A stretch of DNA of 64,000 nucleotides from Fidelibacterota bacterium (GCA_046861385.1 JBHHTW010000003.1:73660-137659); one strand, 5' to 3'. Shown: positions 16,043 through 62,642, counted from the first letter of the stretch. Translations and numbers: made by a program. The notes: generated by a model not told the origin, from the letters alone.

Positions 16043-16310
16043 TGTTTTATTATCAATGACAGCCATTGCTGACGCCATTGCAAATCTTTTCCGCGGAATG
16101 GGAGATGTGATGAGAGGGTGGATGCTGGCCATTCCCATGAGTGTAGCAAAAGGTATATTTATCGTGTATTTCCTCGCCTTAATTATCTGGGTAATCAAAC
16201 TCCCGGATAATGAAGTAACCCTGGTATTAACCAGCGGGAAAATAATTCACCTCCGGCCCTATGCCCTGGCTTCTTTGATAATTATGGTATTGATTTACCT
16301 CATTTTTTAA
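16035..16310 (+). CDS. Small membrane protein, probable SSS accessory subunit
   Basis: Two hydrophobic segments; overlaps both the SSS stop and the GH84 start. Confidence 0.6.
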   Translation: MNNVLLSMTAIADAIANLFRGMGDVMRGWMLAIPMSVAKGIFIVYFLALIIWVIKLPDNEVTLVLTSGKIIHLRPYALASLIIMVLIYLIF

Positions 16311-48095: not shown

Positions 48096-48114
48096 TATCT
48101 GATTTCCACTATAA

Positions 48115-49485
48115 TTATTTTTTTACTTTCCATAAATAATAGAATGTACCGCTGGCTGTTAATGCGATTCCGATCAAAGAAGGTATAAACGCCGTCACCA
48201 AAGTAATAATGAAGAATGCGGAATAAAGAATCAGAACAATGATCATGCTCCAAGGATAAAAAAGCGCTTTATACGGACGCTTCTTATTCGGCCATTTTTT
48301 CCGAAGAATATAAATCGCACCAAAGGTCAGTAGGTTAAAAATTGTGCTGGTCGCAGAAAAGAAATCAATAATCATTTCATAAGCATTGGTCCCGCTTGAT
48401 CCAGAAGAAATATAAGTTGAAACCACCGCAAAAATAAGTAAAACCGTTGCCCAGATTCCCTGTCCTATCAAAGCGTTATTCGGTGTTTTAAATACCGGAT
48501 GGAGTTTTTTAAACTTATTAAAAAACAATCCGTCTCTGGCCATGGCATGCCAGGTTCTGCTTTTACATAAAATTTGTGTGCTGATATTTCCAAAAGCATT
48601 TACAGCGACAGCAAGTGATATGAGAATTCCACCCGTGGCTCCCAGAACGACTTTCATGGCTGCGGAAGCAACCCATTTATTTTCTATTATGGCATTCACA
48701 TCTAATTGATATAAATATCCCAAGTTGGCTCCTAAATAGAGAAGCATTACTCCCCCGATTCCCAGGAAAAGAGACAGGGGTAATGTTTTTTGGGGATGTT
48801 TCACTTCCTCTGCCAAATAGGTTGCACCTTCCCATCCGCTAAAGGCAAAAAATGAATACCGTAATGCAGCGCCAATAGCAAGAATGGTCGGCCAGCCAAA
48901 GGAATCCGGCCACAATGGATTGGTAAAATTTTGGATATTGCCGGTTGAAAAGGAAGTTAAAGTAATACCGATGATGGCTCCCAACGCGCCAATTTTTATC
49001 GTACTGAAAAAGATTTGAAATTTTCCACTCATTCTGACACCAAAGAGATTGATGCCCGTCAAAAGCCATATAGTGATAAGGGCAATAATAAATGTGAGTG
49101 TCAGGCCGAATGGTGTTCCAACCAAAATTTCTGTAATGGCATTCAAGTATTCAGTAAAAACCAAAGCAACTGCTACTATTGAAGCTGTTTCAGATACAAA
49201 AAACATTGCCCAGCCTCGAATGAAAGCGATGTAGGGGCCATATGCTTCCTTCAGAAAAACATAGGGACCGCCGGATTTGGGAAGCATCGCAGTGAGTTCG
49301 GCATAGATTACTGCGCCAAAAATGGTAATGATTCCGCCGATGACCCAAACCAGACCAAATAGTGATGTACAACCCACCAAAGCCATAATGGGTGCAGGCG
49401 TTCGAAAAATTCCTGAACCAATAATCCGACTAATGACGATAGCGACAGACTCTTTTAGCCCCAATCCTTGTTTGTAATCAGTCAT
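48115..49485 (-). CDS. APC-superfamily amino acid permease
   Basis: IIGSGIF, YAEL..MLPKSGG.Y, FAFSGWE, AEEVKHP and AMARDGLFF. Confidence 0.92.
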   Translation of the reverse strand: MTDYKQGLGLKESVAIVISRIIGSGIFRTPAPIMALVGCTSLFGLVWVIGGIITIFGAVIYAELTAMLPKSGGPYVFLKEAYGPYIAFIRGWAMFFVSETASIVAVALVFTEYLNAITEILVGTPFGLTLTFIIALITIWLLTGINLFGVRMSGKFQIFFSTIKIGALGAIIGITLTSFSTGNIQNFTNPLWPDSFGWPTILAIGAALRYSFFAFSGWEGATYLAEEVKHPQKTLPLSLFLGIGGVMLLYLGANLGYLYQLDVNAIIENKWVASAAMKVVLGATGGILISLAVAVNAFGNISTQILCKSRTWHAMARDGLFFNKFKKLHPVFKTPNNALIGQGIWATVLLIFAVVSTYISSGSSGTNAYEMIIDFFSATSTIFNLLTFGAIYILRKKWPNKKRPYKALFYPWSMIIVLILYSAFFIITLVTAFIPSLIGIALTASGTFYYLWKVKK

Positions 49486-49500
49486 AATAAAAAATGAAGC

Positions 49501-50784
49501 TTATTTATAAAGATAATAACTTGTTGAAAGCTTTTTGAAATCCTGAATGGATTTTTCGTAAGATTGAAATAATGCTTCAGCATCTCCGTCTGAATTGATT
49601 ATTTGACTTAAATCCTGATTTCCCCAAAGTCGCGGGAGAGATGTTTTTAACTCAAAGTGCTCAGGATATAATTGATGAATCACACCCAATATTTGAATTC
49701 CCGTGGAGACCGGTTCAAATTCACGGTAATTTAAGATTGTAATTGAAACTCCCTCGCAGGGCACGTTTTCATATTTCGGATATAACGATTTTCCGGGCAA
49801 GGAAACTGGTGTAAAGGAGATGGGCTTAAAAGACACTCCGGGTAAATGTTTTAAAATCATCATTTGTGACAATTGCTTACCATCGACCCAAGGTGCTCCA
49901 ATCCATTTAAACGGATGGTCTGTTCCTCTTCCTTCGCTCACATTGGTTCCTTCAACCATACACATGCCTGCATAAATTACCGCCGTTTCCACATCTGGAA
50001 TATTGGGCGAAGGGGATATCCAGGGGACATTCGTTTCATGGTAATAACTATTTCTCCTCCAACCTTTCATTGGTATGACGGACAACTCAGGCGTGACCGA
50101 TATCCAATTTTCTCCCACAATCATTTTGGCTAGTTCACCTGCGGTGAGTCCATAACGATTGGGGATTGGATACATGCCCACGAATGATTTAAGATCCATG
50201 TGAAGGATGGGGCCGGAGACTTCGGTTCCTCCCAATGGATTGGGTCGGTCCAGAATCATTACCGGGATATTTGCTTCTGCGGCTGCTTCCATCACAAGAC
50301 CCATTGTAGAAATGTATGTATAAAATCGGGTGCCTACGTCTTGTATATCATAAATAATCAAATCAAGCCCATTCAGCATATCCAGTGTTGGTTTTCTAGT
50401 TTTTCCATATAGACTAAAAATAGTCGGAAAATCATTCAGTTCCTGATTAGTTATTTTTTGCCCGGCAGAAACATTTCCAAAAAAGCCGTGTTCAGGTGCG
50501 AAAATAGCTTTTAGATGAACATCATTCAATTTCATCAATAATTTATAATTTGGTAAACCACTCAGATCAACACCTGTATGGTTCGTAACCAGCCCGATAT
50601 TTTTCCCTTTAATTAAATGTATTTGATCTTTAATTAATACATCCAGTCCGTTTAAAACGTGTAAAATCTCGATGGGTGGAATATCTTTATTCTTGAATAA
50701 TTCTGATTGCTGCTGGTGTGTGGAAGGATGTTCCTGAGATTGAATGATCGAACAAAACACCAATAGAAAAAATACATACTTCAT
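49501..50784 (-). CDS. namZ: Second DUF1343 exo-beta-N-acetylmuramidase (NamZ, GH171), secreted
   Basis: GLVTNHTG, IFAPEHG, SLYG, YDIQDVGTRFYTY, LDRPNPLGG and SEGRGT. Start moved to MKYVFF at 50784. Confidence 0.9.
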   Translation of the reverse strand: MKYVFFLLVFCSIIQSQEHPSTHQQQSELFKNKDIPPIEILHVLNGLDVLIKDQIHLIKGKNIGLVTNHTGVDLSGLPNYKLLMKLNDVHLKAIFAPEHGFFGNVSAGQKITNQELNDFPTIFSLYGKTRKPTLDMLNGLDLIIYDIQDVGTRFYTYISTMGLVMEAAAEANIPVMILDRPNPLGGTEVSGPILHMDLKSFVGMYPIPNRYGLTAGELAKMIVGENWISVTPELSVIPMKGWRRNSYYHETNVPWISPSPNIPDVETAVIYAGMCMVEGTNVSEGRGTDHPFKWIGAPWVDGKQLSQMMILKHLPGVSFKPISFTPVSLPGKSLYPKYENVPCEGVSITILNYREFEPVSTGIQILGVIHQLYPEHFELKTSLPRLWGNQDLSQIINSDGDAEALFQSYEKSIQDFKKLSTSYYLYK

Positions 50785-50800
50785 TATAAAATGCCAGTCC

Positions 50801-53239
50801 TTACTTAACCATTGTGACTTTTCGAAAATCCATATTCGTCCCGGAGGTAATAGAAATAATATATATTCCCGACGAAACAGGATGTCCATTATTATTGAGA
50901 CCATTCCAAGTCCAAGTAAAATGATCGTGAGGGGAGGGCAGCAGGTTTGTACTGCGGATGGTTCTTCCCACCAAATCCGTAATGTGGATTTCCGTTCGCC
51001 GATTCGGGAGGTTATTATTAATTAAAATAGTCATGGAGGAATTTGACGGATTGGGAAAAACAGATTTAATTGACACTTGATCAGGAAAAGGAGTATCCTC
51101 GAAATGATTGACGGATAGCTGATCTTCATAAAAATCAACAATTTCGGCCATTATTTCACTCCGTTTCGATTCAGGGTAAATGGTTTCGAATCCAACGGAC
51201 AAATGAACAATACCGCCCAAATCGTTTCCGGATCCAAATGAACCAATAAATTGAATTCCCATGCCCCCTTCGGCATTATAATCAACTCCATTAAATTTAG
51301 CGCAAATGTCTGCTCCCACTGCCGGTTTAATTCCATCTGGCCAATCCACGTCATAAGTTCCGTTGCTTCCATTATCAAATGTAATATTATTGATGCCTTC
51401 AAAAATGGAACCGCTGGTACCAAAACCGCTGTAGGTTCCTTGGTGCCCCCCCGCCGCATCCGATATATAAACTGCTTTCAAATAGTCTAAGTAAAAGGCC
51501 TTGTCAGTTGAGGTTCCCTGAGCAGAAAGGTCGTAACCAATCTCAGATCCGGAAACAAAGAGAAAACCTCCATTCTCCAAATATGTTTGTACCAGGTCTT
51601 GTTCTTCATAAGTGAATGTGCTGGTGGCGGTTCCTTCTTCTCCCAATATCCAATCGACAAAATGATAATCCAAATTAATATTATTCTGGATTACCGCTTC
51701 ATTAGTGGCTGAATCAAAGGCTAATCCATTTTGAATCAGGGCATCACCATGCTGCCGAATAAAATTGTGTGTATTCGTCGTTCCACTGGTTCGGTCAAAA
51801 CCATTCACAACCAGACAGGAAACAGCGTCGGTTGTAGGTACAACACCTAAAAATTCTGTCTGTGGACTGGCACCAAATCCGTTCTGTCCAATGATGGATA
51901 AATAATACGGTTCTCCTTCATTCAAATTCTTAACGATAATGGGTCGCTGGTTGAAGACTCCTAATGTTTCGGTATTATTGGAGTTTAGAAAGGTCCGCAA
52001 AACTACAAATTCGTTAGCCGTTCGAGCTCCAGTGAAATCAATCATAATGTCACCATTCCCAACATTGCGAATGGATAAATTACCGGGAGTAGCCGGGGGA
52101 GAACTTGCACCAAATTTAACGAACAGAAGATCCCATAATTCAGGATCTGATCCATCATAGCCCATCGCCCAGATTCCGACTCCCTTTAAATTGTGATTTA
52201 ATGCGAAATCGTACTTTAGAGAGAGTGAAAGACTATCATCATACCAGCCCTGAAACCAATCCGGGTTTTGATATTTGTACCAAGGTGTCTGTGATTCTGA
52301 ATGCCACAGCTTTCCAAAAGATAGGGCATTGCTTTCCATTTCAGAATACAGTTTAGCCGTACCTGTTCCGGTAGTTGAAGCGCCGGCTGATCCGGAGGAT
52401 GTTGGCCATTCAAATCCAAAATATGGGCAGCCTAAAATGAGTTTATCTGCCTGATTATTAGTTTTGCTCAAATAATCATTTACAGTCCAAGTGATAGTGT
52501 AACCCGACCCGGTTAATGGAGCATTTGGACCTGAAGTTGAGCTACCGCTATAGTGGTAATCATATCCCATGATAAATAAACCATCACTGATTTCTGCTAA
52601 TGCGTTATAATCCCAGGCACTGCTCCAATCTACCGCCGGCATAGCGAGCGTCACTTGGGAACCGGGAATAGCATTATTAAAGGCATTCTTCAAATCTGTA
52701 ATAAATTGAACCATATTGTTTTTTTGGGAGGCAGGCATAACTTCAAAATCAATATTAACTCCATCTCCATTTCCTGAGGACACTGTATTAACAAGATTAT
52801 TGATGAGGTTTTGTCGGTGACTGCTGCTGCTTAAAAGTGTCGTTAAATCACTGTTGCTAAACAATGTTGCCGTCAAGACAACATCCGTTCCTGCCGCATG
52901 AGCAGTATTAATCAAAGAAGTCGGTGGCCAGCCATGATCGTTACTTATACCACCTGTTGCTGTAATTTCTGCGCTAAAATAGGCTATCGTAGATATGAGG
53001 TTAAAATTGTAGTTAGTCCATGATGTACCCATCCAGTATGGGTGATACCCAAACACTTCATGAGAAGGAGTGGTATGATTCGTTCGATAAAAACGGATAA
53101 AGGGAGCAGTATCAATTTGACGATCAATTTCTGTATAATGTGTATTATAATATTCCAGCTGTTGTTGGTGAATGCTGGGATTATGATTAGCAAAAGCAAT
53201 ACAAATTGAAAGGTGTATTATAAAAATATTTTGTCTCAT
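50801..53239 (-). CDS. Secreted GH18 hydrolase (chitobiase/peptidoglycan glucosaminidase-like) with FN3, an additional domain and T9SS-like CTD
   Basis: EVFGYHPYW, GDGVNIDFE, IMGYDY, LILG.PYFG and GVGIWAMGYD; C-terminal FPNPSN...SSGIY. Confidence 0.88.
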   Translation of the reverse strand: MRQNIFIIHLSICIAFANHNPSIHQQQLEYYNTHYTEIDRQIDTAPFIRFYRTNHTTPSHEVFGYHPYWMGTSWTNYNFNLISTIAYFSAEITATGGISNDHGWPPTSLINTAHAAGTDVVLTATLFSNSDLTTLLSSSSHRQNLINNLVNTVSSGNGDGVNIDFEVMPASQKNNMVQFITDLKNAFNNAIPGSQVTLAMPAVDWSSAWDYNALAEISDGLFIMGYDYHYSGSSTSGPNAPLTGSGYTITWTVNDYLSKTNNQADKLILGCPYFGFEWPTSSGSAGASTTGTGTAKLYSEMESNALSFGKLWHSESQTPWYKYQNPDWFQGWYDDSLSLSLKYDFALNHNLKGVGIWAMGYDGSDPELWDLLFVKFGASSPPATPGNLSIRNVGNGDIMIDFTGARTANEFVVLRTFLNSNNTETLGVFNQRPIIVKNLNEGEPYYLSIIGQNGFGASPQTEFLGVVPTTDAVSCLVVNGFDRTSGTTNTHNFIRQHGDALIQNGLAFDSATNEAVIQNNINLDYHFVDWILGEEGTATSTFTYEEQDLVQTYLENGGFLFVSGSEIGYDLSAQGTSTDKAFYLDYLKAVYISDAAGGHQGTYSGFGTSGSIFEGINNITFDNGSNGTYDVDWPDGIKPAVGADICAKFNGVDYNAEGGMGIQFIGSFGSGNDLGGIVHLSVGFETIYPESKRSEIMAEIVDFYEDQLSVNHFEDTPFPDQVSIKSVFPNPSNSSMTILINNNLPNRRTEIHITDLVGRTIRSTNLLPSPHDHFTWTWNGLNNNGHPVSSGIYIISITSGTNMDFRKVTMVK

Positions 53240-53258: not shown

Positions 53259-54293
53259 TTAAAAAGTTAAACTGAGTGAGAAACCGGAAATGGAATTGAA
53301 AACACCAAACGACTGATTTACGTAGTCCAGATTTATATTTACATTTTTCATTAACTGATGACGAACTCCTCCACCTATTGAGAATCCTTGCTCCACATTA
53401 TCCACAAATAATGTGGATTGCCCCGCCCGCAAAAACACTTTTTTTCTCCAAGCATATTCAATCCCGGCATTCACATATTCCACATTATTATTGGGATGAA
53501 CAGCATCAATGGATACTGTAAAGATATGGGGGCCGGATTTGAGTAAATTTGTACTCATTCCCACTCTAAAAATGAGAGGCAGAGGCCATTTCCATGTATC
53601 GAGGTGGCCATCTATACGATCATTATTACCAGTAAGGTTTTCATCAATATCATGAGTGATCCTTGTATCTTTTCCCTCTAATTGTAATTTCTCCCCAAAA
53701 TTTGAAACGTTCATGCCAATACGAATATTACGATTCCGTGTTATAAACAATGAACCGATGTCAATAGCCATTGTTGAAGCCGACATATGATAGATATGTT
53801 GTTGTATAAACTTCATATTTAAACCTAAAGAGAAACTATCGGTGAATCTGCGTCCATAGCTTATTCCAAGTGCCAAGTCATTTGAGCCAAATTTCTCGCC
53901 GGTACCTTCGGGTAATGCAACAGTTCGTACTATCATATCATCCATAGTAATCGAAGTAGCTGAGAGCCCTAGTACTCCGTTGCGCTGAATTGGAATAATA
54001 ACTGCTGCAAAGTTGAAGCGAATGTCAGCTACCCATGGAAGATGAAAAAATTGAGCAGTTGTTTTTTTTGCAGATGCAATTCCTGCCGGATTCCAGTATA
54101 GAGCTGTTGCGTCATCCGCTATGGATACGAAGGCATTACCCATGGCCCTAGCACGTGCACCCACTCCAAACTCAAGAAATGCCGCTGCGGCAGTGCCTAC
54201 TTTACTTACGTGCCTATTGTATTGGCTTAGGGCGGGATGTACCAATAACAGAAAAATTATTGATGATATGAGCTTATGTCTGGAAGTGTACAT
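53259..54293 (-). CDS. PorV/PorQ-family outer-membrane beta-barrel
   Basis: SKVGTAAAAFLEFGVGARARAMGNAFVSIADDATALYWNPAG and LPLIFRVG. Confidence 0.88.
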   Translation of the reverse strand: MYTSRHKLISSIIFLLLVHPALSQYNRHVSKVGTAAAAFLEFGVGARARAMGNAFVSIADDATALYWNPAGIASAKKTTAQFFHLPWVADIRFNFAAVIIPIQRNGVLGLSATSITMDDMIVRTVALPEGTGEKFGSNDLALGISYGRRFTDSFSLGLNMKFIQQHIYHMSASTMAIDIGSLFITRNRNIRIGMNVSNFGEKLQLEGKDTRITHDIDENLTGNNDRIDGHLDTWKWPLPLIFRVGMSTNLLKSGPHIFTVSIDAVHPNNNVEYVNAGIEYAWRKKVFLRAGQSTLFVDNVEQGFSIGGGVRHQLMKNVNINLDYVNQSFGVFNSISGFSLSLTF

Positions 54294-54295
54294 GT

Positions 54296-57200
54296 TTATT
54301 TGATGACGGCAAATTTTCCAATTTTTTCACCAATTCCCGGTGCATCAACGTGGTAGAGGTAAATTCCGAACGCAATTTCAAGACCGTCTTTTGAAAGCAT
54401 ATTCCATGATTCTGCCCCATCTTCCAAAACACTTTCGTGATTTATCGTATCAACGAGAAAGCCTGACAAGGTATATATCTTGATTTTGCATTTTTGCGGT
54501 AGATGAATAAAATCAACCTTTCGAGTTCCTCTTCCTGATACGTAGAGGTGTTGGCGTTCCCACGATGCCGTAACAATATACGGATTTGGAACAACAGCGA
54601 TTCTACTCAACTCCTGACGAGCAAGTGATTTATCAATGCGGGAAACAGTCGTAACGAAACTATAGATATCGTTTGATGAAAATGGCTTTGTAGTCAGTAT
54701 TGTTAAAATATCTCCATCCTCAACGTGCTCTACCGGGGCCGATGTTGTATCATAGACAACTGTGGTATCATTGATAAAAATTGTGTCGATTTGTATTGAA
54801 TCAATTTTAAAAGATACTGAGAAACTTGGGTCTAGACCAGTTTCATCGGGTAGGAGAATAATTGTTTCTTCCGGGTCCCATTGTCTGTCTCCATTCTCAT
54901 CCATGATAATAAATCGAGTTTCCCGATTCTCAGAAGTATTCCATATATTAAAAGGAGCTGAAACACCAAACAGCTCATCTTGTGAAAGAGAATCACCGGT
55001 ATTTCCTCCCCATATTAGTTCAAAATCAGCGGGGTAGAGAGATCCGTATACACTAATTTCTGGAATATAATCGCAATCGCCGGATATCCAACCGCTTGAA
55101 TCTTCTAAGAGTGCCAGGCGGTCATTATAAACTAAAATTTGCATACCATCAATAATTGGGTTTAACGGTTCACCCTCTATGAAATTACTTCTATTTATTG
55201 GATAATATTGATAGGAGGCTATATATGCTCCCCCTTCGCAAAGTGGTCCGCTGATGCACGAAATAATTCCAAAATCGTTGTTTACCTCAAAGTGGATTCC
55301 CTCCTCAAATTCCTGTGAACCATCCAAGGATGTTACTATAACAGAGCCTGGTATTAGGTTTTTCTTACGAGTACTGAACCAATCACCTGAAATGTCAACG
55401 GTGTCAGTAAAAATTTCTTGATTGACAACTGAATAATATGTTTTTTCCCCTTCAGTGAAAAACTCCACAGAGTATTCCCATTTATCATGGATACTATCTG
55501 GATCAACTGTGTTAATAATCACTGAACCTGTAGCAGCGCCTGAATCATGAACGACAATTTGAAGTCCGTTTTCTGGACTATTGGGTGGGATGTACCCTGC
55601 TGCGGGAGCATCCGGAACCACTTCAGCTACATTTTCTCCGAGGACTAAAACGTTCCCGCTGGCATCTAAATCAACAATGATGGTACACTCAGAAGGAGCC
55701 AAAGGTTGGAGTTTGTCGAATTCGCTCAGTCCACGGTCATAAAAATCTTCATCATAACCTTTATCGTACGATGTAATCGCATAGTAATAGGTTTGACCAT
55801 TCTGTACGGTTGTATCCTCCCAAAAATGCCTTAAGCCACCATCTTTTCCCATATTAAACTGAATACCGTTAAAAGCGATGGGATGGGGACCCTTCAAGCC
55901 ATTTTTCAAATCGAATTGGGCGATCGGTTTTTTGAAAGTTAAATTGCCATAAGCATCTGTGATAATCCAAGGTTCTAAAAATGCAGGATCGGTACTGCGG
56001 TAGATTCGATATCCTTCAAAATCGTATCCGTAAATGGGATCTCTGGAATTCTCAGCTGTTTTATCCCAGTACAATGTTACTTTACTATCTCCGGGTACTG
56101 TAGTAAGATTTGGTTTACCGGGCGGTTTAGAAAAGGAATAATCGGCGTCATAGATTTTCTGCATGGTTTGGGCATTTCTTAAAATATCATCCAAATCCTG
56201 CCCAAAAAGCATGGCGATAGCAAACTTTTTACGTTCGCCAGCCAATAGTGAGAAATAGCCAGACCCAAAAAGGAATGTGATATCTTTTGTCTGTTCAGGG
56301 ACATCAAAAAACCCCGGTCTAAGTTGTTTCCACAGTTGCTCATCATCAGAAGCTGTGATATTGGGCCAGGGAGCAGCAAAAAAACTGGTGAGTCCAATTT
56401 GGTCTGACTCAGCATTATCGGTATACTCAAAATTGGGTTCGCCGATATCGGGTATTCCATTTCCTTCAGTTCCATCAGCGTCAGGACCGGTATAATCCCC
56501 ATGTGTTGGACCCAGCCCATCTGAACCAATATCGTCGTTATCAATATCCCAATCATCATCATTGTCAATTCCGTCAAATTGACTTTCATCTACCATCCCA
56601 TCAAAATCGTTATCAATTCCGTCATGAGGATTTCCGGGTGATTCAAGGAATGTCCAACCAAAGTAAGCAGGTTTGAATCCTCCTTTGGCGTTGCTCCAAT
56701 TATCGTGATCCCACTGATATACGATGGAATTCTCCCGATCGAACCATGAGTCATCATCTCCTTGATCCCCGTCATCACCAATATCGGCATCGCCATACAT
56801 TCCAAAACACACACTATCAAGCGTTGTTTTACCCACATTGGTTATCCAGTATGTCCAGATAATGATATCTTCTGCGGCAGGATGGGACCATTGGTATCCC
56901 CTTACTTCCACTTGAATGCCTAACCCTCGCCGGAGAGTATCGGTCGAATCCGGGAAGAATTGAAATTCATCGTTATAATAATCGTCCATAACAAAGTACG
57001 ATTCCTGATCCGCGCGGGCATACTTGCCATATTGTCCGTTCCAAACACCATCCCAATCTGATGATTTATTGACCCATGAGTCCGGCCAAGAACTGGGATC
57101 ATCACTCATTGCTATATTTTCTTGATTTGGATTAGCATAGCCTGGTAATGGTTCAAAGCCCCACTGATAACCGGAGTCAGATAAATCTTTTCCATTATTG

Positions 57201-57541
57201 GAAACCATACCATCTGAAATGATATGTCGTCTTGTACCGTTTTTCAAAACCACGCTGGCACCAACAACAGGAGTAAATTCAGCAATATATGATTTTCCAG
57301 AGCCGACGGGATAGATACCAGAGTCATAGCGCCCGGCAATGGTCCAATCCCCTATGCCGCCGAAATTATAGAATCGTGTAAGGATTTTGTTACCGTTATG
57401 AACACTGAATTTTCTGTCCGCTCTTCCTGCCGGTTTATAGACCGACTGTTTTTGTAGCACGACTTGGTCTTTGCTAATTTGAGCTGCAAGAACAGCAAAT
57501 AGTCCAAAAACCAGAGCAACTGTATATCCGTTGTGTTTCAT
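54296..57541 (-). CDS. Large secreted protein with Asp-rich Ca-binding repeats, FN3-like domain and VVPNPY-type CTD
   Basis: Signal peptide; DGIDNDFDGMVDE; PP.KP....GDSKVTLYWD; FEGYRIYRS; NGQTYYYAITSYD; IAVVPNPY..FIHLP..GIYLYHVDA. Confidence 0.75.
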   Translation of the reverse strand: MKHNGYTVALVFGLFAVLAAQISKDQVVLQKQSVYKPAGRADRKFSVHNGNKILTRFYNFGGIGDWTIAGRYDSGIYPVGSGKSYIAEFTPVVGASVVLKNGTRRHIISDGMVSNNGKDLSDSGYQWGFEPLPGYANPNQENIAMSDDPSSWPDSWVNKSSDWDGVWNGQYGKYARADQESYFVMDDYYNDEFQFFPDSTDTLRRGLGIQVEVRGYQWSHPAAEDIIIWTYWITNVGKTTLDSVCFGMYGDADIGDDGDQGDDDSWFDRENSIVYQWDHDNWSNAKGGFKPAYFGWTFLESPGNPHDGIDNDFDGMVDESQFDGIDNDDDWDIDNDDIGSDGLGPTHGDYTGPDADGTEGNGIPDIGEPNFEYTDNAESDQIGLTSFFAAPWPNITASDDEQLWKQLRPGFFDVPEQTKDITFLFGSGYFSLLAGERKKFAIAMLFGQDLDDILRNAQTMQKIYDADYSFSKPPGKPNLTTVPGDSKVTLYWDKTAENSRDPIYGYDFEGYRIYRSTDPAFLEPWIITDAYGNLTFKKPIAQFDLKNGLKGPHPIAFNGIQFNMGKDGGLRHFWEDTTVQNGQTYYYAITSYDKGYDEDFYDRGLSEFDKLQPLAPSECTIIVDLDASGNVLVLGENVAEVVPDAPAAGYIPPNSPENGLQIVVHDSGAATGSVIINTVDPDSIHDKWEYSVEFFTEGEKTYYSVVNQEIFTDTVDISGDWFSTRKKNLIPGSVIVTSLDGSQEFEEGIHFEVNNDFGIISCISGPLCEGGAYIASYQYYPINRSNFIEGEPLNPIIDGMQILVYNDRLALLEDSSGWISGDCDYIPEISVYGSLYPADFELIWGGNTGDSLSQDELFGVSAPFNIWNTSENRETRFIIMDENGDRQWDPEETIILLPDETGLDPSFSVSFKIDSIQIDTIFINDTTVVYDTTSAPVEHVEDGDILTILTTKPFSSNDIYSFVTTVSRIDKSLARQELSRIAVVPNPYIVTASWERQHLYVSGRGTRKVDFIHLPQKCKIKIYTLSGFLVDTINHESVLEDGAESWNMLSKDGLEIAFGIYLYHVDAPGIGEKIGKFAVIK

Positions 57542-57551
57542 AGTCTTTTCA

Positions 57552-60308
57552 TTAGAAGCGGATCGTTAACCCCAGTTTTATCTGCCGGGGTGAAGAATAA
57601 TAATCCGGTCTTACTAAATAATCATTCAGAGTGTTATAAGATTGCTCTTGAGGTGTGTAAGTAGGAATGAGGGTATAAGTCGCTCTCCCGGTATCGGTGT
57701 AAACCAGTATCTCATTGCGCCGATCAAACAAATTATAAATTGCACAATGCAAGGACATGCTCACATTATTAATTTTGAAATTCCAAAAACTGCGAACATC
57801 AATAATAAATTGATCTGGCTTTTGCTCACTATTCTCATATGCTATACGCGTTCCGGCTAATGAAGGTGTGTAAGGCAATCCGCTGCGATACTGAAGGACA
57901 AAGCTGACTCCGCTATTGGAAGCAGGATGGAACGTTATTGTACTATTCATTGTATGCCTCTGATCCCAATCCAAAGCAACCAGTTGTTTCTCCGGTTCGT
58001 TGCCGCTAAGCGCATCAAAATATGCTGTTGCCGGGTCGGATGCGTTTCCTTCTGCAAAGGAATAAGTGTAATCCAATGCACCGGACACGAAGCCGGATGA
58101 TCGTTTGGTGAGAGAAACTGAAATACCCCGAACGTTTCCATAATCACGATTTATGTAGAGGGCATATCTGTCTCCGGCGATGAACGTATCAACAATCTTT
58201 GTTCCCAATAAACTGCGGATATCTTTGTAATACCCAGTTACATCGATGACGGTATTACTCCCGACCTGCTGTTGAAAGCCCACTTCGTATTGTGTAGTTC
58301 TTTCCGGCTCTAGGTCTGCGTTTCCCATTGTTGTACTCAGCCCGGGTGTTACTTCGAAATCAGGATTTGCATACAGGTAACTATAAGGCGGAATCTGGAA
58401 AAAATGTCCATATGAAAAATGCATCACACCTTGATCAGAAACAGGGAATGCAAGAGCAAGACGAGGACTAAATTGTGACTTTGATGAAGCATCTTTAAAC
58501 CAGTACTCCAATCGATCATTATCAGTTTTTGTGTTATCAGAACGTATTTCATTCTCGTCGATTATTCCATTTCCGTTTTCATCATAATACTGATTAATAG
58601 GCTTTAATGGCTGCAAGTAGTTAGGGTCTGAATTATCCGATAATATTTTCCACGCAGGATCAAAGTAATCCCATCTAATACCCAAATTTATTACAAGGTC
58701 CTTAAACTCCACTTTGTCTTGAATATAGGTAGAGAATTCAGTTGGTGTTCTATTCAATTTATTAAAATTAGGTGAGTTTTCTTTAGGTAGTTGAGGCGAG
58801 TAATCAGTGTTTTCATTATAAAGAATAGTGAAGCTTGTTTCCTGAAGTCTGCTTGTTTGCAATTCTACTCCCAACTTTACTTGATGAAGGTGTGTGATTT
58901 GGCTCATTAGCTCCGCTTTGTATGTTCTAATCATTGAATCCCGATCATAGTGTCCCATCCTGTACCCTCCGATATAGAAATTATATCCGGGCGCAACCGT
59001 GAAAACCCTTGGGTCAACACTGTAACTATTAGAATCAAGTGGATCATCATGAACATAGTACTGATAACGATTTGATATTTGTGAGTAACTCAATGTAAAG
59101 AAAGTAGCCGAACTTAGCGATTGATCAAGCTTTGTAATGAAGCTGCTGTTTGTACGAATACGTTGATAATCTCCTTCCGGGTTATACTTAAATTTGTGAT
59201 TATAGGTCTGAAACCTCGTTTTATTGGCAGTAATGTTTGCGGTTAACTTTGTTCGTTTTGTCAGTTTGAGACTCATTTTTGCCTGCCCTGATAATTGTTC
59301 ATTCCAATTCATGGGTGTAAAATTGCCATCTCCAGGTTTCACCAACTCCCATGTTGTTGTTACAGGATTTTGGACAAAGGAATCCGGCCAATAACGGCGT
59401 TGACCGTAGAGGAATCCTTCGTTAAAATAATAGCGTCCGGAAGTATAAAAGGAACCTCTGCTGTTTGTAAAAGGGACTGGCCCACTGAAACTCCCCTGCC
59501 AGTCACGCAAGCTGGAAGGGTCAACATCATCAATGTTCAGGAAAAGACTTGTATCAGAGCTCCAAAAATCTCCCAAATTCATTTGCAAATCCCCCTGATA
59601 ACGATCAAAATCCCCATCCTTTGTAACGATATTTACTACTCCAGACATTGCATGGCCGTATTCAGCATTAAATGTGCCACTAATGAATTGTAACTCCTGG
59701 ATGGCATTATTTTCAATTTCCACTGCCATTCCGGAGGTATAAGGATCAGTAACAGAGATACCATCGATTAAATAGACGATTTCGCTGCCTCTTCCTCCGC
59801 GAACATGCATCGTGCCATCAGAACCAACAACTACACCAGCCTGCAGCGATACGATTTCTTCAAGTTCTTCAACCGGAAGTATCGCAATTTCATCTGAACC
59901 AACATTTGCTTGCGAATAGGTAATGTCGGGCTGCACCAGCGGTCTCTCGGAAATCACGGTAATTTCTTCAAGGCCTACCACTGTGGGTGTAAGATCGAAA
60001 TTAACGGCTGAAGTTAAGTCTATCCGAATACGTACCTTCTGAATAACAATCTCATTATATCCAATCATTGAGGCACTAATTTCATATATTCCAGGTGGTA
60101 TTTGTAATACGAAATAATGACCGTTTATATCAGTTGCGGCTCCCAAATCAGTTCTTTTCAGGATCACATTTACCCCCACTAAGGGTTCTCCCGTTGAAGC
60201 GTCTCTTACCTCGCCGGTTAGTTTTCCTGTAGTTCCGGAGAAAAGCAAGCTTGTACTGATAAAAAAAGGAAGAAGATATTTCCATTCAAAATTTGTCAAA
60301 CTTTTCAT
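57552..60308 (-). CDS. TonB-dependent receptor (carboxypeptidase-regulatory-domain type)
   Basis: GTTGKLTGEVRD..TGEPL, HVRGGR, SGTFNAEYG.AMSGVVNIVTK, YIQDKVEF, GNADLEPERT and PRQIKLGLTIRF. Confidence 0.92.
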   Translation of the reverse strand: MKSLTNFEWKYLLPFFISTSLLFSGTTGKLTGEVRDASTGEPLVGVNVILKRTDLGAATDINGHYFVLQIPPGIYEISASMIGYNEIVIQKVRIRIDLTSAVNFDLTPTVVGLEEITVISERPLVQPDITYSQANVGSDEIAILPVEELEEIVSLQAGVVVGSDGTMHVRGGRGSEIVYLIDGISVTDPYTSGMAVEIENNAIQELQFISGTFNAEYGHAMSGVVNIVTKDGDFDRYQGDLQMNLGDFWSSDTSLFLNIDDVDPSSLRDWQGSFSGPVPFTNSRGSFYTSGRYYFNEGFLYGQRRYWPDSFVQNPVTTTWELVKPGDGNFTPMNWNEQLSGQAKMSLKLTKRTKLTANITANKTRFQTYNHKFKYNPEGDYQRIRTNSSFITKLDQSLSSATFFTLSYSQISNRYQYYVHDDPLDSNSYSVDPRVFTVAPGYNFYIGGYRMGHYDRDSMIRTYKAELMSQITHLHQVKLGVELQTSRLQETSFTILYNENTDYSPQLPKENSPNFNKLNRTPTEFSTYIQDKVEFKDLVINLGIRWDYFDPAWKILSDNSDPNYLQPLKPINQYYDENGNGIIDENEIRSDNTKTDNDRLEYWFKDASSKSQFSPRLALAFPVSDQGVMHFSYGHFFQIPPYSYLYANPDFEVTPGLSTTMGNADLEPERTTQYEVGFQQQVGSNTVIDVTGYYKDIRSLLGTKIVDTFIAGDRYALYINRDYGNVRGISVSLTKRSSGFVSGALDYTYSFAEGNASDPATAYFDALSGNEPEKQLVALDWDQRHTMNSTITFHPASNSGVSFVLQYRSGLPYTPSLAGTRIAYENSEQKPDQFIIDVRSFWNFKINNVSMSLHCAIYNLFDRRNEILVYTDTGRATYTLIPTYTPQEQSYNTLNDYLVRPDYYSSPRQIKLGLTIRF

Positions 60309-61393
60309 TTTTGTATATTTATTTCTTCATCTGGGCTTTTAGTCGGTGAATGTATAATTCGTATCAATTTTTTATCTGCATCTAATTGTGCATGAGTACC
60401 GATAGGGAGTGTCACATTGTATTTGTAATGTCCAATGGGGAAATTAGCTAAAACTGGTTTTTCCATGTCAGAAAAATATTGCTTTAGCACTTCCATCATT
60501 TTAAAACTATCCGGATCGTCTGGAGGTTCATCAGACCTCCGAGTGAATTTACCCAGAATTACACCTTGTAGGTGGTCGAATTTTCCTCCCAGTTTTAGTT
60601 GAGAGAGATAGCGGTCTATTCGATAGGGTGCTTCACCAATATCTTCAATAAACAAGATTTTACCATCCGTATCTATTTCGTACGGTGTCCCCATCAATGT
60701 GCAGATTAATGATAGGTTTCCACCAATTAATTGCCCTGTTCCTACTCCCGGATGAAGAATAATAACGGAATCTTTCAATCCAAAGGAAGCAAGATCAATG
60801 GTGTAACCCTCGGGATTCACTTGCTCAATTGCTCTCCAAAAATATGTATCGGAAATTGGAGATAAATTATCTTTATTACCCAATCCGTACATGGGATTTG
60901 GCGAATGAAAAGTAATCAACCCCGTTTTCTTATGAATGGCAAGATGTAATCCAGTAATATCGCTAAATCCAATTAAAATTTTGGGATTGTTTTTGATTAC
61001 GTTGTAATCGAGCATATCAAGAATTCGCGTTGTGCCATAACCACCGGTACCAGGGAAAATTGCCTTGACGGATTGATTTTGAAACGCATCCATTATTTCA
61101 TGGGCACGCCTCTCATCAGATCCTCCAAGGTATCCCCAAGACCGAAATAAATCAGTAGATTGAATTGTAATATATCCACGATTTTCCAGACGTTTTTTAG
61201 CAAGAGCCATGCGGGTACTGTCTAAGGATCCGGAGGGAGCAATAAACATAATGGTGTCTCCCGGTGTCAGATGATTAGGTAAAATTGATTTAGGTGTTTT
61301 GGGACTTTCAGCAGGAAAAAATAGGTTTAGTGAAATCAGAAGAAAGGGAGAAAACAATTTCATGAACTGGATTATTGGCAAAGAATTTTTCAC
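60305..61393 (-). CDS. ldcA: LD-carboxypeptidase (peptidase S66) with apparent signal peptide
   Basis: GGYG, IGFSDIT (Ser), GGNL, LFIEDIGE (Glu) and FPIGH (His). Confidence 0.9.
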   Translation of the reverse strand: MKNSLPIIQFMKLFSPFLLISLNLFFPAESPKTPKSILPNHLTPGDTIMFIAPSGSLDSTRMALAKKRLENRGYITIQSTDLFRSWGYLGGSDERRAHEIMDAFQNQSVKAIFPGTGGYGTTRILDMLDYNVIKNNPKILIGFSDITGLHLAIHKKTGLITFHSPNPMYGLGNKDNLSPISDTYFWRAIEQVNPEGYTIDLASFGLKDSVIILHPGVGTGQLIGGNLSLICTLMGTPYEIDTDGKILFIEDIGEAPYRIDRYLSQLKLGGKFDHLQGVILGKFTRRSDEPPDDPDSFKMMEVLKQYFSDMEKPVLANFPIGHYKYNVTLPIGTHAQLDADKKLIRIIHSPTKSPDEEINIQK

Positions 61394-62097
61394 TATTCAA
61401 TAATGGTATACTTAGTTTTGATAACTTGATATGGAAAGGCATTAAAATGCCACCATTCAGTCGTAATAGTACTGAATCCTGCTTTTTCCATGGCATCTCT
61501 CAATATTCGGCGATTGGATACCTGTTCTCCGGTTAATTCTCCCACTGCGAGTAAGGAATCCTCAAGGACAGGAAAAGCCAATTCTCCAAAATAATCATAT
61601 TTGGTTCCCATGTCCAGTGGATTCCCAAGCGTATCGGCAAGGGTGAGGTCAACCGCAGCCCCGAAATTATGGATCGATCCGGTTTTGGGATTTGCAACGA
61701 ATTGTGTTCGTTCTGATTCAGGGACGTTATCCAGGGTATTCCATAACGTCCATTGAATGCTTCTGGGACGGAGGCCGTCATAAATAAGAAAGCGAAGGTC
61801 AGGATGATCTTCTTTAAGGAAGTTATGAGCCATCACCAGCTTTTGAGCCGGGAGTTGGCGTAGATAGCAAATTTCCAAGTCACCATATACATCCGCATTC
61901 ATGAAATTGTCAGTTGTGGAATACTTCAGTTCGACAAACATAGTGGAGTCTGCTTCAAGAATATTTACTAAATTATTTTTACCAATAGATTCATCTGAAA
62001 AAGACTGTATAGTCTCTGGGGTCCCACAGCCAAAAGTGCACATGGAAAAATAGCCAAATATTAGAATGAACAACAAATTTAGTCGGCTATAAATCAT
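61393..62097 (-). CDS. D-alanyl-D-alanine dipeptidase (M15D, VanX/DdpX family), lipoprotein
   Basis: LKYST.DNF, YDGLRP, SIHNFGAAVD, DMGT.YD and EWWHF; lipobox TFGC. The ATG overlaps the SpmB stop (TGATG). Confidence 0.9.
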   Translation of the reverse strand: MIYSRLNLLFILIFGYFSMCTFGCGTPETIQSFSDESIGKNNLVNILEADSTMFVELKYSTTDNFMNADVYGDLEICYLRQLPAQKLVMAHNFLKEDHPDLRFLIYDGLRPRSIQWTLWNTLDNVPESERTQFVANPKTGSIHNFGAAVDLTLADTLGNPLDMGTKYDYFGELAFPVLEDSLLAVGELTGEQVSNRRILRDAMEKAGFSTITTEWWHFNAFPYQVIKTKYTIIE

Positions 62098-62642
62098 CAA
62101 AAAAGAAATTTGCAAATGTATACAGCTGTTAAAACACCAACAGCATCGGCAATGAGCCCGGCTGCCAATGCATGTCTGGATTTTCGAATACCCACAGATC
62201 CAAAATATACAGCTAACACATAAAATGTAGTTTCTGTGGACCCAAACATGGTTGCTCCGATTTTCGCATAAATGGAGTCTGCTCCGTATTCATTAATCAA
62301 ATCCGTCAGTAATCCTAATGAGCCGCTCCCAGAAAGAGGCCTCATGAGAGCCAAAGGCAGGTTTTCAGGCGGGAAACCGATAGCTGTTAGCAGGGGAGAT
62401 AAAAAATTCAACAAAACGTCCAAAGCGCCGGACGCTCTGAACATTCCAATGGCAACCAAAATAGCCACGAGGTATGGAATAATCCTAACGGCGATTGTAA
62501 ATCCGTCTTTTGCGCCGTCCACAAATGATTCATATACTTTTACTTTTTTAAAGATCAGCGCATATAAAGGTATCCCCACCAGTAAAAAAGGAATGATATA
62601 TTTTGAAAATTCGTTTATTCCATTTACAAATGAATCAATCAT
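62097..62642 (-). CDS. spmB: Spore maturation protein B family membrane protein
   Basis: VYESFVDGAKDG, RPLSGSG and GSTETTFYVLAVYFGSVGI. Confidence 0.92.
   Translation of the reverse strand: MIDSFVNGINEFSKYIIPFLLVGIPLYALIFKKVKVYESFVDGAKDGFTIAVRIIPYLVAILVAIGMFRASGALDVLLNFLSPLLTAIGFPPENLPLALMRPLSGSGSLGLLTDLINEYGADSIYAKIGATMFGSTETTFYVLAVYFGSVGIRKSRHALAAGLIADAVGVLTAVYICKFLF

Follow-up and report, generated by a model that had tools for sequence, protein, structure and literature searches.

In Bacteroidota, the SusC/SusD (RagA/RagB) systems combine a large TonB-dependent receptor, which carries an N-terminal CarboxypepD_reg-like extension, with a surface partner encoded immediately downstream, and such pairs lie inside substrate-specific loci of hydrolases and transporters, in many copies per genome. 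In the T9SS, barrels of the PorV/PorQ family hold substrates by an uncleaved C-terminal domain (CTD); in Porphyromonas gingivalis, according to PMC10202324, neither PorZ, which binds PorQ, nor PorU, which sits on PorV, loses its CTD. Contacts between CTDs and PorV loops were described (PMC10994853). In operons of Flavobacterium johnsoniae, a type B substrate is encoded together with its cognate shuttle and a PorE homologue, and static complexes of these proteins were proposed (PMC12618676).

A three-gene cassette resembling each of these systems in part was found in a stretch of 64,000 nucleotides from the genome of a marine Fidelibacterota (Marinimicrobia) bacterium (GCA_046861385.1, JBHHTW010000003.1:73660-137659), hereafter the window. 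Its genes encode a TonB-dependent receptor, a large partner protein with a VVPNPY tail and a small outer-membrane barrel; no published description of this triad was found. It shares with SusC/SusD all the traits listed above, with PorQ-PorZ and PorV-PorU the combination of a barrel of this family and a T9SS substrate, and with the F. johnsoniae operons (PMC12618676) the order of a substrate gene followed by its own FadL-like barrel gene and the presence of a third outer-membrane protein. Unlike SusD, the partner is neither a lipoprotein nor a helical TPR protein, but an all-beta protein of 700-1250 aa, and it would reach the surface by a T9SS sorting tail and its own barrel. The cassette differs from PorQ-PorZ in being tied to a nutrient receptor, in occurring about nine times per genome and in having no known role in LPS attachment, and from the F. 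johnsoniae operons in having a TonB-dependent receptor as third member where those have a PorE-like peptidoglycan anchor. In our opinion, this module probably does the job of SusC/SusD of Bacteroidota with different parts. Genes, families, gene order, folds, tail homology and a barrel-tail complex model were computed in silico.

Layout of the cassettes and their receptors

The members of the two cassettes of the window, A and B, and one additional protein are as follows.

57552-60308, minus strand: cassette A receptor, 918 aa, with an N-terminal CarboxypepD_reg-like domain, a plug and a large barrel
54296-57541, minus strand: cassette A partner P0001 (middle protein), 1081 aa, with no Pfam or NCBIfam matches
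54296-54601, minus strand: VVPNPY C-terminal domain of P0001, a diverged type-A-like T9SS sorting domain
53259-54293, minus strand: cassette A outer-membrane barrel of the PorV/PorQ family, 344 aa, NF033709
37285-40302, minus strand: cassette B TonB-dependent receptor, 1005 aa, with CarboxypepD_reg and Plug
34957-37266, minus strand: cassette B partner P0002 (middle protein, short form), 769 aa
33996-34937, minus strand: cassette B barrel of the PorV/PorQ family, 313 aa, NF033709
28694-30976, minus strand: P0003, a third protein with a VVPNPY tail, 760 aa, paralogue of P0002

The genes are separated by 10 and 2 nt in cassette A and by 18 and 19 nt in cassette B, and the start of receptor A overlaps an upstream LdcA-like gene by 4 nt. 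The ORF layout and the family matches confirmed that the cassette occurs twice in the window, as had been stated in the preliminary description, although this count understates the genome with its approximately nine cassettes. Judged by pairwise alignment, A and B are diverged paralogues, their corresponding parts being 22-34% identical, namely 24% for the receptors (E 6e-43), 26% for the barrels (E 7e-32), and 22% for the bodies (E 7e-11) and 34% for the tails (E 3e-11) of the middle proteins. P0003, overlooked in the earlier list of VVPNPY proteins, is 58% identical to P0002 over 762 columns and reached 621.9 bits on the partner-family HMM. It is encoded on the same strand, 3.0 kb downstream of barrel B, without a receptor or barrel of its own, and the intervening DNA contains a sodium/solute symporter gene and a ceramidase-like gene.

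Receptor A was matched in Pfam by TonB_dep_Rec_b-barrel (88.5 bits), CarbopepD_reg_2 (59.5) and Plug (26.7) and gave 1122.8 bits on an HMM built from the cassette receptors of this genome, and receptor B was matched by CarboxypepD_reg (63.5 bits) and Plug (29.6). Both differ from SusC in failing the SusC/RagA model TIGR04056, with 63.6 (A) and 73.6 (B) bits against a cut-off of 368 and with the match confined to the N-terminal part; the SusC signature TIGR04057 matched neither of them. A direct comparison is possible, because the same genome encodes elsewhere a true SusC (493.4 bits, signature present) with a weak SusD neighbour. As PF07980 had a single match in the whole genome, on a contig other than that of the window, and PF14322 had none, the window is without SusD, and the earlier impression that none could be recognised there is borne out. 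The partners were rejected as SusD/RagB proteins, having no match to PF07980 or PF14322, signal peptides without Cys and models that are almost wholly beta. In a sample of 61 genomes of the phylum, SusD_RagB was found in 11 and the partner family in all 61, so that this family stands where SusD is mostly missing.

Sorting tail and small barrel

The genome contains T9SS components, including SprA (750.4 bits, cut-off 200), a search for which had been suggested in the preliminary description, and the tail-cleaving sortase PorU (584.7 bits, cut-off 420). Homologues of PorK/L/M went undetected, with 32.6 bits only for GldK and no match for GldL or GldM, the control genomes being themselves T9SS-free; likewise, TIGR03519 (PorP/SprF) had no match either in this genome or in the control ones. 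The best candidate for a general PorV is a different gene, located on contig C2, with 195 bits on NF033710 (cut-off 250). About 50 type A tails were counted in the genome.

The VVPNPY tail had been described as a distinct CTD. This is right insofar as P0001, P0002 and P0003 have no match to TIGR04183/PF18962 (Por_Secre_tail), whereas the other cargo proteins of the window (40353, 46875 and 50801) pass these type A cut-offs. However, the tail is homologous to type A: its alignment by hhalign with the 51 canonical type A tails of the genome gave 97.4% probability (E 1e-11, 82 columns), and an HMM built from VVPNPY tails recruited canonical tails on iteration, growing from 14 to 65 matches. Type A motifs are present in it (the PNP strand, the G..V strand, the G.Y strand and the C-terminal Lys), in which P985, P987, G1027, G1059 and Y1061 do not vary and N986 and K1081 hardly do, and a loop of ~15 residues with low pLDDT (990-1004) is inserted in P0001 after the PNPY strand. 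On these alignments, the tail is a divergent relative of the type A T9SS sorting domain that carries an inserted loop, and not a new fold. The parallel drawn earlier with type B CTDs and PorP/SprF barrels is an analogy only, and the cassettes differ from those systems in the type-A-like tail and in the PorV/PorQ family of the barrel; matches to CHU_C (PF13585) stay below the cut-off of 27 in P0002 (24.6 bits) and P0003 (26.2 bits) and are absent in P0001, and canonical type A tails show similar cross-matches. A weak match of the P0002 tail to the PorZ C-terminus was also noted (NF052228, E 7e-4).

All 11 VVPNPY tails of the genome sit on members of the partner family. In a library search with the tail profile, the best 150 of 19,323 matches included 49 proteins with a length of 650-1300 aa, and every one of these 49 carried the family body. 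A distant family member on contig C25 has a canonical type A tail, and no receptor or barrel is encoded on that contig.

Barrels A and B scored 202.7 and 182 bits on the PorV/PorQ family model NF033709, well above its cut-off of 90, which upholds the claim that each cassette encodes its own barrel of this family. They were rejected as PorV proper (NF033710, 78.8 and 71.9 bits against 250), as PorQ proper (NF033711, 87.2 and 97.9 against 220) and as PorV2 (NF052325, 88.7 and 63.4 against 325), and in being under the PorQ and PorV equivalog cut-offs they differ from the barrels of the known pairs. The barrel family profile matched the solved F. johnsoniae PorV 6h3i_F (E 2.6e-29) and also PorV of the entries 8gl6-8gln.

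In all three runs, the complex model of barrel A with the P0001 tail reached ipSAE 0.92, against 0.00 for the best among three controls; it has 137-139 confident contacts and a partner pLDDT of 80-82. On calibration of the tool, 58 of 80 solved complexes passed the mark, as did 2 of 110 mismatched pairs. Conservation is higher at the interface than elsewhere, both in the barrel (0.65 vs 0.52, p 1e-4) and in the tail (0.70 vs 0.53, p 6e-4). The model thus supports binding of barrel A to the tail of the neighbouring partner, and the CTD-PorV interface anticipated in the preliminary description can indeed be predicted for cassette A. Because the barrel profile matches solved PorV-CTD translocons, this result may draw on that likeness, and it speaks for PorV-like binding, not for permanent anchoring or for preference for the own barrel. 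The interface consists mostly of residues conserved throughout the family and co-variation of barrel and tail is weak (partial r 0.17 over 64 trios with shared history removed), which argues against strict one-to-one pairing.

Gene linkage and a possible nutrient-capture unit

The genome (2.43 Mb) encodes 10 cassette-type receptors, 11 partners and 9 barrels. Eight of the 11 partner genes are flanked immediately by a cassette-type receptor gene on one side and a barrel gene on the other, in one case with an inserted ORF of 179 aa, and the remaining three have a same-strand cassette barrel gene at most 10 kb away. With fewer barrels (9) than partners (11), and with three partners lacking one of their own, either several partners use one barrel or some take another route.

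The 80 loci taken from other species contain 85 partner genes; a receptor was found directly upstream in 64 of the 67 cases with sufficient upstream DNA and a barrel directly downstream in 73 of the 76 with sufficient downstream DNA. The full trio was present in 56 of 59 loci assessable on both sides, belonging to Marinimicrobia, Calditrichota, Ignavibacteria and others; two of the exceptions have the order receptor-barrel-partner, and in the third adjacency is masked by an over-long ORF call. The gene triad is, therefore, almost invariant across phyla. The distance matrices of 64 trios correlate with r 0.79-0.90, values inflated by common descent and sequence length, as is the partial r of 0.64 obtained for receptor and partner body with the barrel controlled. 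The overall reading of the preliminary description is supported in part: the own barrel, the predicted tail binding, the triad linkage and the rarity of SusD support it, and cognate specificity is not supported.

We consider it rather probable that each cassette forms a three-part outer-membrane nutrient-capture unit, in which a barrel-anchored partner feeds the receptor. The partner, with its signal peptide and without a lipobox, would be exported by Sec and would cross the outer membrane via the T9SS, for which SprA, PorU and a PorV-like gene are present. We infer that its diverged tail bypasses the general PorV/PorU route and is captured and kept by the barrel of the cassette, as PorZ is by PorQ in Porphyromonas, so that the all-beta body would be displayed on the surface beside the co-encoded receptor. 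There it could bind a substrate and pass it to this receptor, as SusD and surface glycan-binding proteins do for SusC.

It is unlikely, though to a degree that deserves weighing, that the barrel serves only as a dedicated secretion shuttle, like SprF for SprB, which pulls the partner from the SprA translocon and leaves it released or otherwise attached; the partner would then act as a binding protein or enzyme, either free or linked to LPS, and the receptor would be merely co-regulated. PorV-family barrels act as shuttles in the published model (PMC10994853, PMC12618676), transient binding fits the complex model as well as permanent binding, and both the excess of partners over barrels and the presence of PorU agree with this explanation, but export needs alone leave the near-absolute linkage to the receptor unexplained. 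Moreover, the general PorV-like gene serves about 50 type A cargos, and a private shuttle in each cassette despite its existence suggests a role after export. Retained tails have precedents in PorZ-PorQ and PorU-PorV (PMC10202324).

Body of the partner and surroundings of the cassettes

In the predicted model, P0001 consists of a signal peptide (1-21) without a lipobox Cys, a galactose-mutarotase-like supersandwich with acidic Ca-type loops (about 36-470, nt 56132-57436), an FN3-like domain (about 475-600), more beta domains (620-960) and the VVPNPY tail (981-1081). P0002 has a signal peptide, a supersandwich (about 28-505), an FN3-like domain (about 515-615) and the tail (about 665-769, nt 34957-35274). 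The AF2 models have pLDDT 85.8 and pTM 0.74 for P0001 and pLDDT 84.3 and pTM 0.85 for P0002.

P0001 was aligned with the N-domain of 9ju0 over 251 residues (VIA Z 19.7, rmsd 3.1), with comparable matches of its supersandwich to N-domains of GH15, GH94 and GH116 enzymes, and P0002, in a search independent of Foldseek, with that of the bacterial glucoamylase 1lf6_A over 237 residues (Z 18.8, rmsd 3.0). On the whole, both supersandwiches have a sugar-handling fold and resemble N-domains of GH15 glucoamylase/glucodextranase, GH94, GH116, GH65 and GH149 (Z 18-20, 230-270 residues, rmsd 2.9-3.6). They share 8-12% identity with these, contain long insertions in the form of acidic Ca-type loops and are fused to an FN3-like domain and a T9SS tail instead of preceding a catalytic domain. 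A common fold does not establish what the partner does; the supersandwich of these enzymes has no part in catalysis, and it is not proven to act as a lectin. With Foldseek, the top match of the partner model was PorZ (5m11), overall a poor one (TM 0.10-0.14).

These structural neighbours, the nearest of which are glycoside hydrolase and phosphorylase domains, might also mark the middle protein as an extracellular enzyme or as an adhesin or S-layer-like protein, engaged in upstream processing or attachment without a physical tie to the receptor. Large size, a beta-rich multi-domain structure and Ca-type acidic loops are found in many adhesins, and FN3 arrays and an S-layer protein are among the Foldseek matches. 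We regard this explanation as improbable, because the enzyme match is limited to the non-catalytic N-domain, neither model contains a catalytic domain, (alpha/alpha)6 or other, Pfam and NCBIfam enzyme families do not match the partner, separate T9SS-tailed hydrolases already adjoin the cassettes, and receptor and partner body co-diverge. From the FadL homology of PorV-family barrels (PMC12578637), a weak Toluene_X/FadL match of barrel A (19.9 bits, under the cut-off of 29.7) and the ceramidase-like gene after cassette B, it could be supposed that the small barrel does not bind tails but works as a FadL-type channel through which a hydrophobic or amphipathic product diffuses. This is very improbable, since its NF033709 score is well over the cut-off, its nearest solved relative is PorV itself, its complex with the tail is modelled confidently with a conserved interface and it accompanies the VVPNPY tail in different phyla.

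For the preferred nutrient-capture unit, the neighbouring genes give a hint of the substrate.

60305-62115, minus strand: upstream of cassette A, LD-carboxypeptidase (S66, LdcA-like) and D-Ala-D-Ala dipeptidase (M15)
46875-53239, minus strand: downstream of cassette A, GH18, NamZ, amino-acid permease and M14 carboxypeptidase

The LdcA-like gene matched Peptidase_S66/S66C (121.8/134.1 bits) and the M15 gene Peptidase_M15 (82.7 bits); NF008424 (167.5 bits) and NF007557 (112.7 bits) remained under their equivalog cut-offs for these upstream peptidases. Downstream, the GH18 gene (Glyco_hydro_18, 124.4 bits) and the M14 carboxypeptidase gene (Peptidase_M14, 50.3 bits) both encode type A tails (Por_Secre_tail), and the others encode an exo-beta-N-acetylmuramidase NamZ (NamZ_N/C, 267.4/155.5 bits) and a permease (AA_permease_2, 190.8 bits). 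The window as a whole encodes two NamZ, an AmiA-like amidase, LdcA-like and DdpX-like peptidases, GH18, GH84, an M14 peptidase and a YdjC-like protein. Since both cassettes lie within this island of peptidoglycan and amino-sugar salvage, their cargo here is likely murein or other fragments containing GlcNAc or MurNAc, with peptidoglycan fragments as the likely substrate on this local context. Growth of the sole cultured member of the phylum on exogenous muropeptides is reported in PMC11652737. The orthologous cassettes at L012, L013, L015, L016 and L018 (54-59% identity) have unrelated flanks, and the peptidoglycan context is not conserved among them. Its own murA and murF make the genome independent of imported murein.

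Cassettes of the window and their copies in the genome

The preliminary description had reported a SusD-free cassette of three genes present twice in the window; both trios are real, and the window is devoid of SusD. Each trio comprises a TonB-dependent receptor, a middle (partner) protein ending in a C-terminal domain with the VVPNPY motif, named here the VVPNPY tail, and a barrel of the PorV/PorQ family, separated by intergenic gaps of 10 and 2 nt in cassette A and of 18 and 19 nt in cassette B. A third protein with this tail, P0003, had been overlooked.

Genes of the two cassettes and the third VVPNPY-tailed protein
57552-60308, minus strand: receptor of cassette A, 918 aa
54296-57541, minus strand: partner of cassette A (P0001), 1081 aa
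53259-54293, minus strand: barrel of cassette A, 344 aa
37285-40302, minus strand: receptor of cassette B, 1005 aa
34957-37266, minus strand: partner of cassette B (P0002), 769 aa
33996-34937, minus strand: barrel of cassette B, 313 aa
28694-30976, minus strand: P0003, 58% identical to P0002

The first gene of either cassette encodes a TonB-dependent receptor with a plug and a CarboxypepD_reg-like N-terminus, and the matches of the receptor sequence to solved structures were confined to the plug region (E about 3e-5). Barrels A and B reached 202.7 and 182 bits, respectively, with the PorV/PorQ model NF033709 (cut-off 90) and remained far under the equivalog cut-offs of PorV, PorQ and PorV2, while P0001 and P0002 matched no family above threshold. 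The identity between the cassettes is 24% for the receptors, 26% for the barrels, 22% for the partner bodies and 34% for the tails; as judged from sequence, the cassettes are old paralogues. In the two cassettes, the promoter scan, whose coverage does not include FCB promoters, gave 63 found vs 59.5 shuffled and 68 vs 58.3, and the terminator scan gave 14 vs 17.0 and 15 vs 15.9, so that neither rose above the shuffled background. Apart from runs with small shares, the public sequencing runs with the cassette were solely DNA runs from the probable source sample, with no RNA run listed.

When hidden Markov models of the cassette proteins were run over all ORFs of the genome (2.43 Mb in 104 contigs, 97.85% complete), cassette-type proteins were found for all three parts. 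Ten receptors scored 887 bits or more, while the other 11 TonB receptors did not exceed 232 bits; nine barrels scored 359 bits or more, followed by a PorV-like gene at 125 bits and two weak matches beside sprA; 11 partners scored 503 bits or more, with one distant relative at 144.6 bits. The earlier count of two copies is thus correct for the window and too low for the genome. The partner lies directly between receptor and barrel in 8 of the 11 cases, and one trio is interrupted by a 179-aa ORF. One more partner has a receptor and lacks its own barrel, and another lies at the very start of its contig, 5-8 kb upstream of a receptor-barrel pair; every partner is situated within 10 kb of a cassette barrel. 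P0003, which has neither a receptor nor a barrel of its own, is found 3 kb downstream of barrel B, behind a sodium/solute symporter and a ceramidase-like gene, and this suggests that partners share barrels.

On contig C9, the ORF between partner and barrel (L003:14311-14850, minus strand) belongs to no known family, and a TIG-domain protein (L003:11964-13274, minus strand) is encoded past the barrel, followed by a second receptor-partner pair without a barrel. On contig C56, the cassette is bordered by an alpha-amylase on one side and, on the other, by a CBM48/CBM20 protein ending in a type A tail, so different copies sit in different substrate loci.

The sole match of the genome to the SusD family PF07980 was on contig C60, adjoining a true SusC. 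This SusC/RagA receptor (L092:6013-10187, minus strand; 493.4 bits) carries the signature motif and stands beside a weakly SusD-like protein of 416 aa, hence both architectures coexist in one cell.

Partner body, tail and barrel

The AlphaFold2 models of P0001 (71-sequence alignment, pLDDT 85.8, pTM 0.74) and P0002 (41 sequences, pLDDT 84.3, pTM 0.85) have in common a large beta-supersandwich, an FN3-like sandwich and the tail, and the long form carries about 340 extra residues of beta domains ahead of the tail. The signal peptides of both proteins lack a lipobox cysteine. The supersandwich resembles the N-terminal domains of bacterial glucoamylase, glucodextranase and GH94, GH116, GH65 and GH149 enzymes (Z 19.7, rmsd 3.1 over 251 aligned residues for P0001; Z 18.8, rmsd 3.0 over 237 residues for P0002, in a search independent of Foldseek), and no catalytic domain is present in either model. 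The top Foldseek match of P0001 was PorZ (5m11, E 1.6e-6), with a poor overall superposition (TM 0.10-0.14). The predicted fold points to sugar handling and does not prove it.

The tail had been described as distinct from the sorting domain of the other cargo proteins. It does fall outside the curated type A models, but profile comparison still places it within the type A fold. A model built from the three tails of the window found 14 proteins in the genome and, after iteration, 65-66, by then including the canonical tails of YPNPFNP type. When the profile of 67 VVPNPY tails was aligned with that of 51 canonical ones, the probability was 97.4% (E 1e-11, 82 columns). This match identifies the VVPNPY tail as a type A fold that has diverged beyond the reach of the curated models. 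It differs in an insertion of about 15 residues after the PNPY strand, which corresponds to the low-confidence loop 990-1004 of the model. Assignment to the type B domains was rejected: the CHU_C scores are sub-threshold and similar to those of canonical type A tails.

In a library of 1.84 billion proteins, the tail profile matched 19,323 proteins at E<=0.001 and 5,860 at E<=1e-10. Among the best 150 of the 19,323, the partner body was present in 49/49 proteins of 650-1300 aa, 44/45 of 300-649 aa, 34/45 of under 300 aa (mostly fragments) and 4/11 of over 1300 aa. The remaining seven of the longest class (P0231, P0232, P0233, P0235, P0252, P0346 and P0360) were set aside as Ig-repeat proteins; the family body is missing from these very long proteins, each of which matched the profile in 9-16 internal stretches. 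This suggests that unrelated surface proteins may also use the Ig-like fold of the tail as a repeating unit. The distant body relative of 144.6 bits (931 aa; contig C25, L091:6570-9365, minus strand) ends in a canonical type A tail, and neither receptor nor barrel was found on its contig, which sets it apart from the cassette members. The type of tail, the body, the barrel and the receptor go together.

Residues 25-344 of barrel A (69-row alignment) were modelled in complex with the P0001 tail, residues 965-1081 (71-row alignment). For this pair, an interface was predicted, as anticipated in the preliminary description, with ipSAE 0.92 in 3/3 runs, 137-139 confident contacts and a partner pLDDT of 80-82, whereas three controls gave 0.00. 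The ipSAE mark was reached by 58/80 solved complexes and 2/110 mismatched pairs, counts that hold only roughly here because our own alignments were supplied. In the model, the VVPNP strand lies against barrel residues 120-125, with further contacts to the conserved N-terminal segment 29-42 of the barrel and to the C-terminal GKFAVIK. The interface is more conserved than the rest in both the barrel (0.65 vs 0.52, p 1e-4) and the tail (0.70 vs 0.53, p 6e-4).

The barrel profile matches Flavobacterium PorV (6h3i, 8gl6-8gln; E 2.6e-29), and in substrate-bound translocon structures, according to PMC10994853, type A domains are gripped by PorV loops; the high complex score may reflect this likeness to solved PorV complexes. 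The model supports PorV-like binding of the tail and speaks neither for permanence nor for a preference for the own barrel. That the barrel anchors or handles the partner, as proposed earlier, is well supported in silico. A cassette barrel is not the general PorV of the genome, and this candidate was dropped; the general PorV-like protein is a separate gene on contig C2.

Co-evolution peculiar to barrel and tail, expected if each barrel served its cognate protein, was not apparent. A mirror-tree (Mantel) comparison covered 64 trios and gave correlated distance matrices for every pair of parts (r 0.79-0.90; 0/500 permutations reached the observed values); shared descent explains most of this correlation, and contact cannot be demonstrated in this way. 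After removal of the receptor signal, barrel and tail retained a partial r of 0.17, and receptor and partner body, with the barrel controlled, one of 0.64; such values are inflated by common descent and sequence length. Whole modules appear to have duplicated and diverged together, with no sign of special barrel-tail co-adaptation. With 11 partners for nine barrels and a conserved interface, family-wide recognition seems as likely as strict one-to-one pairing. The interpretation given in the preliminary description is partly supported: the partnership of the middle protein with the receptor rests on synteny and co-divergence, and its function as a lid is hypothetical.

The secretion machinery was recovered in part. 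SprA (750.4 bits, cut-off 200) and PorU (584.7 bits, cut-off 420) are present in the genome together with about 50 canonical type A tails, and a PorV-like barrel reached 195 bits against a cut-off of 250. The models of GldK, GldL, GldM and PorP gave nothing convincing in the genome, the control genomes themselves being without T9SS; the motor and ring of this lineage may have diverged beyond what the models recognise, or may be different. On contig C30 (L009:303-12021, plus strand), sprA is followed by genes for an M28 peptidase and for a 552-aa protein whose tail is FlgD_ig-like, and by two barrels with weak PorV-family scores (91.6 and 51.2 bits); these could be the PorZ/PorQ-like attachment pair of the lineage.

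Distribution and comparison with known systems

A pattern derived from the three-sequence alignment and scanned against one genome per species found at least 600 stretches, at least 580 of which encode relatives. The best 80 loci were kept, and scoring of their ORFs with the three models gave 85 partner genes. The record titles of these loci name Neomarinimicrobiota, Calditrichota, Ignavibacteria, KSB1, Stahlbacteria, Eisenbacteria and variously labelled MAGs; loci from MAGs assigned to Ignavibacterium album and Caldithrix also occurred among the hits of the scan. The neighbourhood proposed earlier is nearly constant in these loci: a receptor is directly upstream of 64 of the 67 partners with at least 2.7 kb of upstream DNA, a barrel is directly downstream of 73 of the 76 with at least 1.1 kb of downstream DNA, and the full trio in the same order and orientation is found for 56 of the 59 assessable on both sides. 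Exceptions are L050 and L083, with the order receptor-barrel-partner, and L057, where an over-long ORF call masks the adjacency; in L035, the partner is broken into two ORFs.

The partner family occurs in all 61 sampled genomes of the phylum (19 families, 39 genera), mostly in many copies, and SusD_RagB in 11 of them. All ten genomes reached via loci of other phyla gave several to many partner matches. Among 8000 candidates scored, 2446 matched the partner family at E<=1e-10, and all named proteins among those listed bear the label hypothetical. Public names of the relatives are 'hypothetical protein', with the single exception of 'fibronectin type III domain-containing protein', and all clusters returned by the ESM Atlas were also 'hypothetical protein'.

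We tentatively propose, while considering it somewhat more doubtful than probable, that in FCB lineages outside Bacteroidia (Marinimicrobia/Fidelibacterota, Calditrichota, Ignavibacteria, KSB1 and others) SusC/SusD is replaced by an independently evolved outer-membrane uptake complex. In this complex, a T9SS-delivered, all-beta substrate-binding partner would be docked permanently beside or atop the TonB-dependent receptor by a private PorQ-like barrel, and the two copies of the window would be specialised for peptidoglycan fragments.

Bacteroidota owe their dominance in glycan turnover to TonB-dependent uptake assisted by a surface partner. Oceans, sediments and aquifers harbour abundant Marinimicrobia, Calditrichota and Ignavibacteria, most of which, to our knowledge, have no SusD. 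Should the triad function as a complex, it would explain polymer capture by these three groups, provide a function for thousands of 'hypothetical proteins' and represent a new use of T9SS, for building an import machine instead of exporting enzymes or adhesins.

SusC/SusD is the nearest system in working, but the cassette proteins fail every membership test for SusC and SusD. The pairs PorQ-PorZ and PorV-PorU are nearest in anchoring and, as stated in PMC10202324, retain their C-terminal domains. The nearest operon logic is that of the PorE/type B substrate/SprF-like operons of F. johnsoniae, for which static complexes are proposed in PMC12618676. A FadL-like barrel can be a permanent docking subunit, as with BamG of Bacteroidota (PMC12578637). 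The literature searched, supplements excluded, gave no account of a TonB receptor linked to a partner with a T9SS tail and to a private PorV-like barrel. Added here are the modelled complex of barrel and tail and the conservation of its interface, the type A ancestry of the tail and its exclusive association with the partner body, the phylum-level contrast with SusD and the peptidoglycan-salvage setting.

Genomic setting and possible cargo

The whole window, as noted for 1-30000 and 40353-63237, reads as an island of genes for the salvage of peptidoglycan and amino sugars. Upstream of cassette A are a DdpX-like D-Ala-D-Ala dipeptidase and an LdcA-like LD-carboxypeptidase, the end of the latter gene overlapping the start of the cassette A receptor by 4 nt. 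Downstream of cassette A come a type A-tailed GH18 protein, NamZ, an amino-acid permease and an M14 peptidase that likewise ends in a type A tail.

Further genes of the salvage island
49501-50904: NamZ downstream of cassette A
26347-27630: second NamZ, beyond cassette B and P0003
23027-24019: YdjC-like gene
11616-17620: further TonB receptor, symporter and GH84
2193-3074: AmiA-like amidase
1-1830: GH3_C/beta-lactamase fusion

Fidelibacter multiformis, the sole isolate of the phylum, lives on exogenous muropeptides according to PMC11652737, and this life style makes murein fragments attractive as cargo of the cassettes. Three points caution against relying on this: five orthologous cassettes with 54-59% identity have unrelated flanks, murA and murF are present in the genome, and genomic context by itself identifies no ligand. 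If the proposed specialisation is true, the cassettes would supply the muropeptide scavenging reported for the isolate with its route across the outer membrane. The salvage setting yields a concrete candidate for how muropeptides pass the outer membrane in the phylum.

The window also holds two ceramidase-like genes. At 8264-10618 (minus strand), beside a BNR protein, a 784-aa protein with Reg_prop (two-component regulator propeller) repeats is encoded, possibly a sensor or surface binder of the island.
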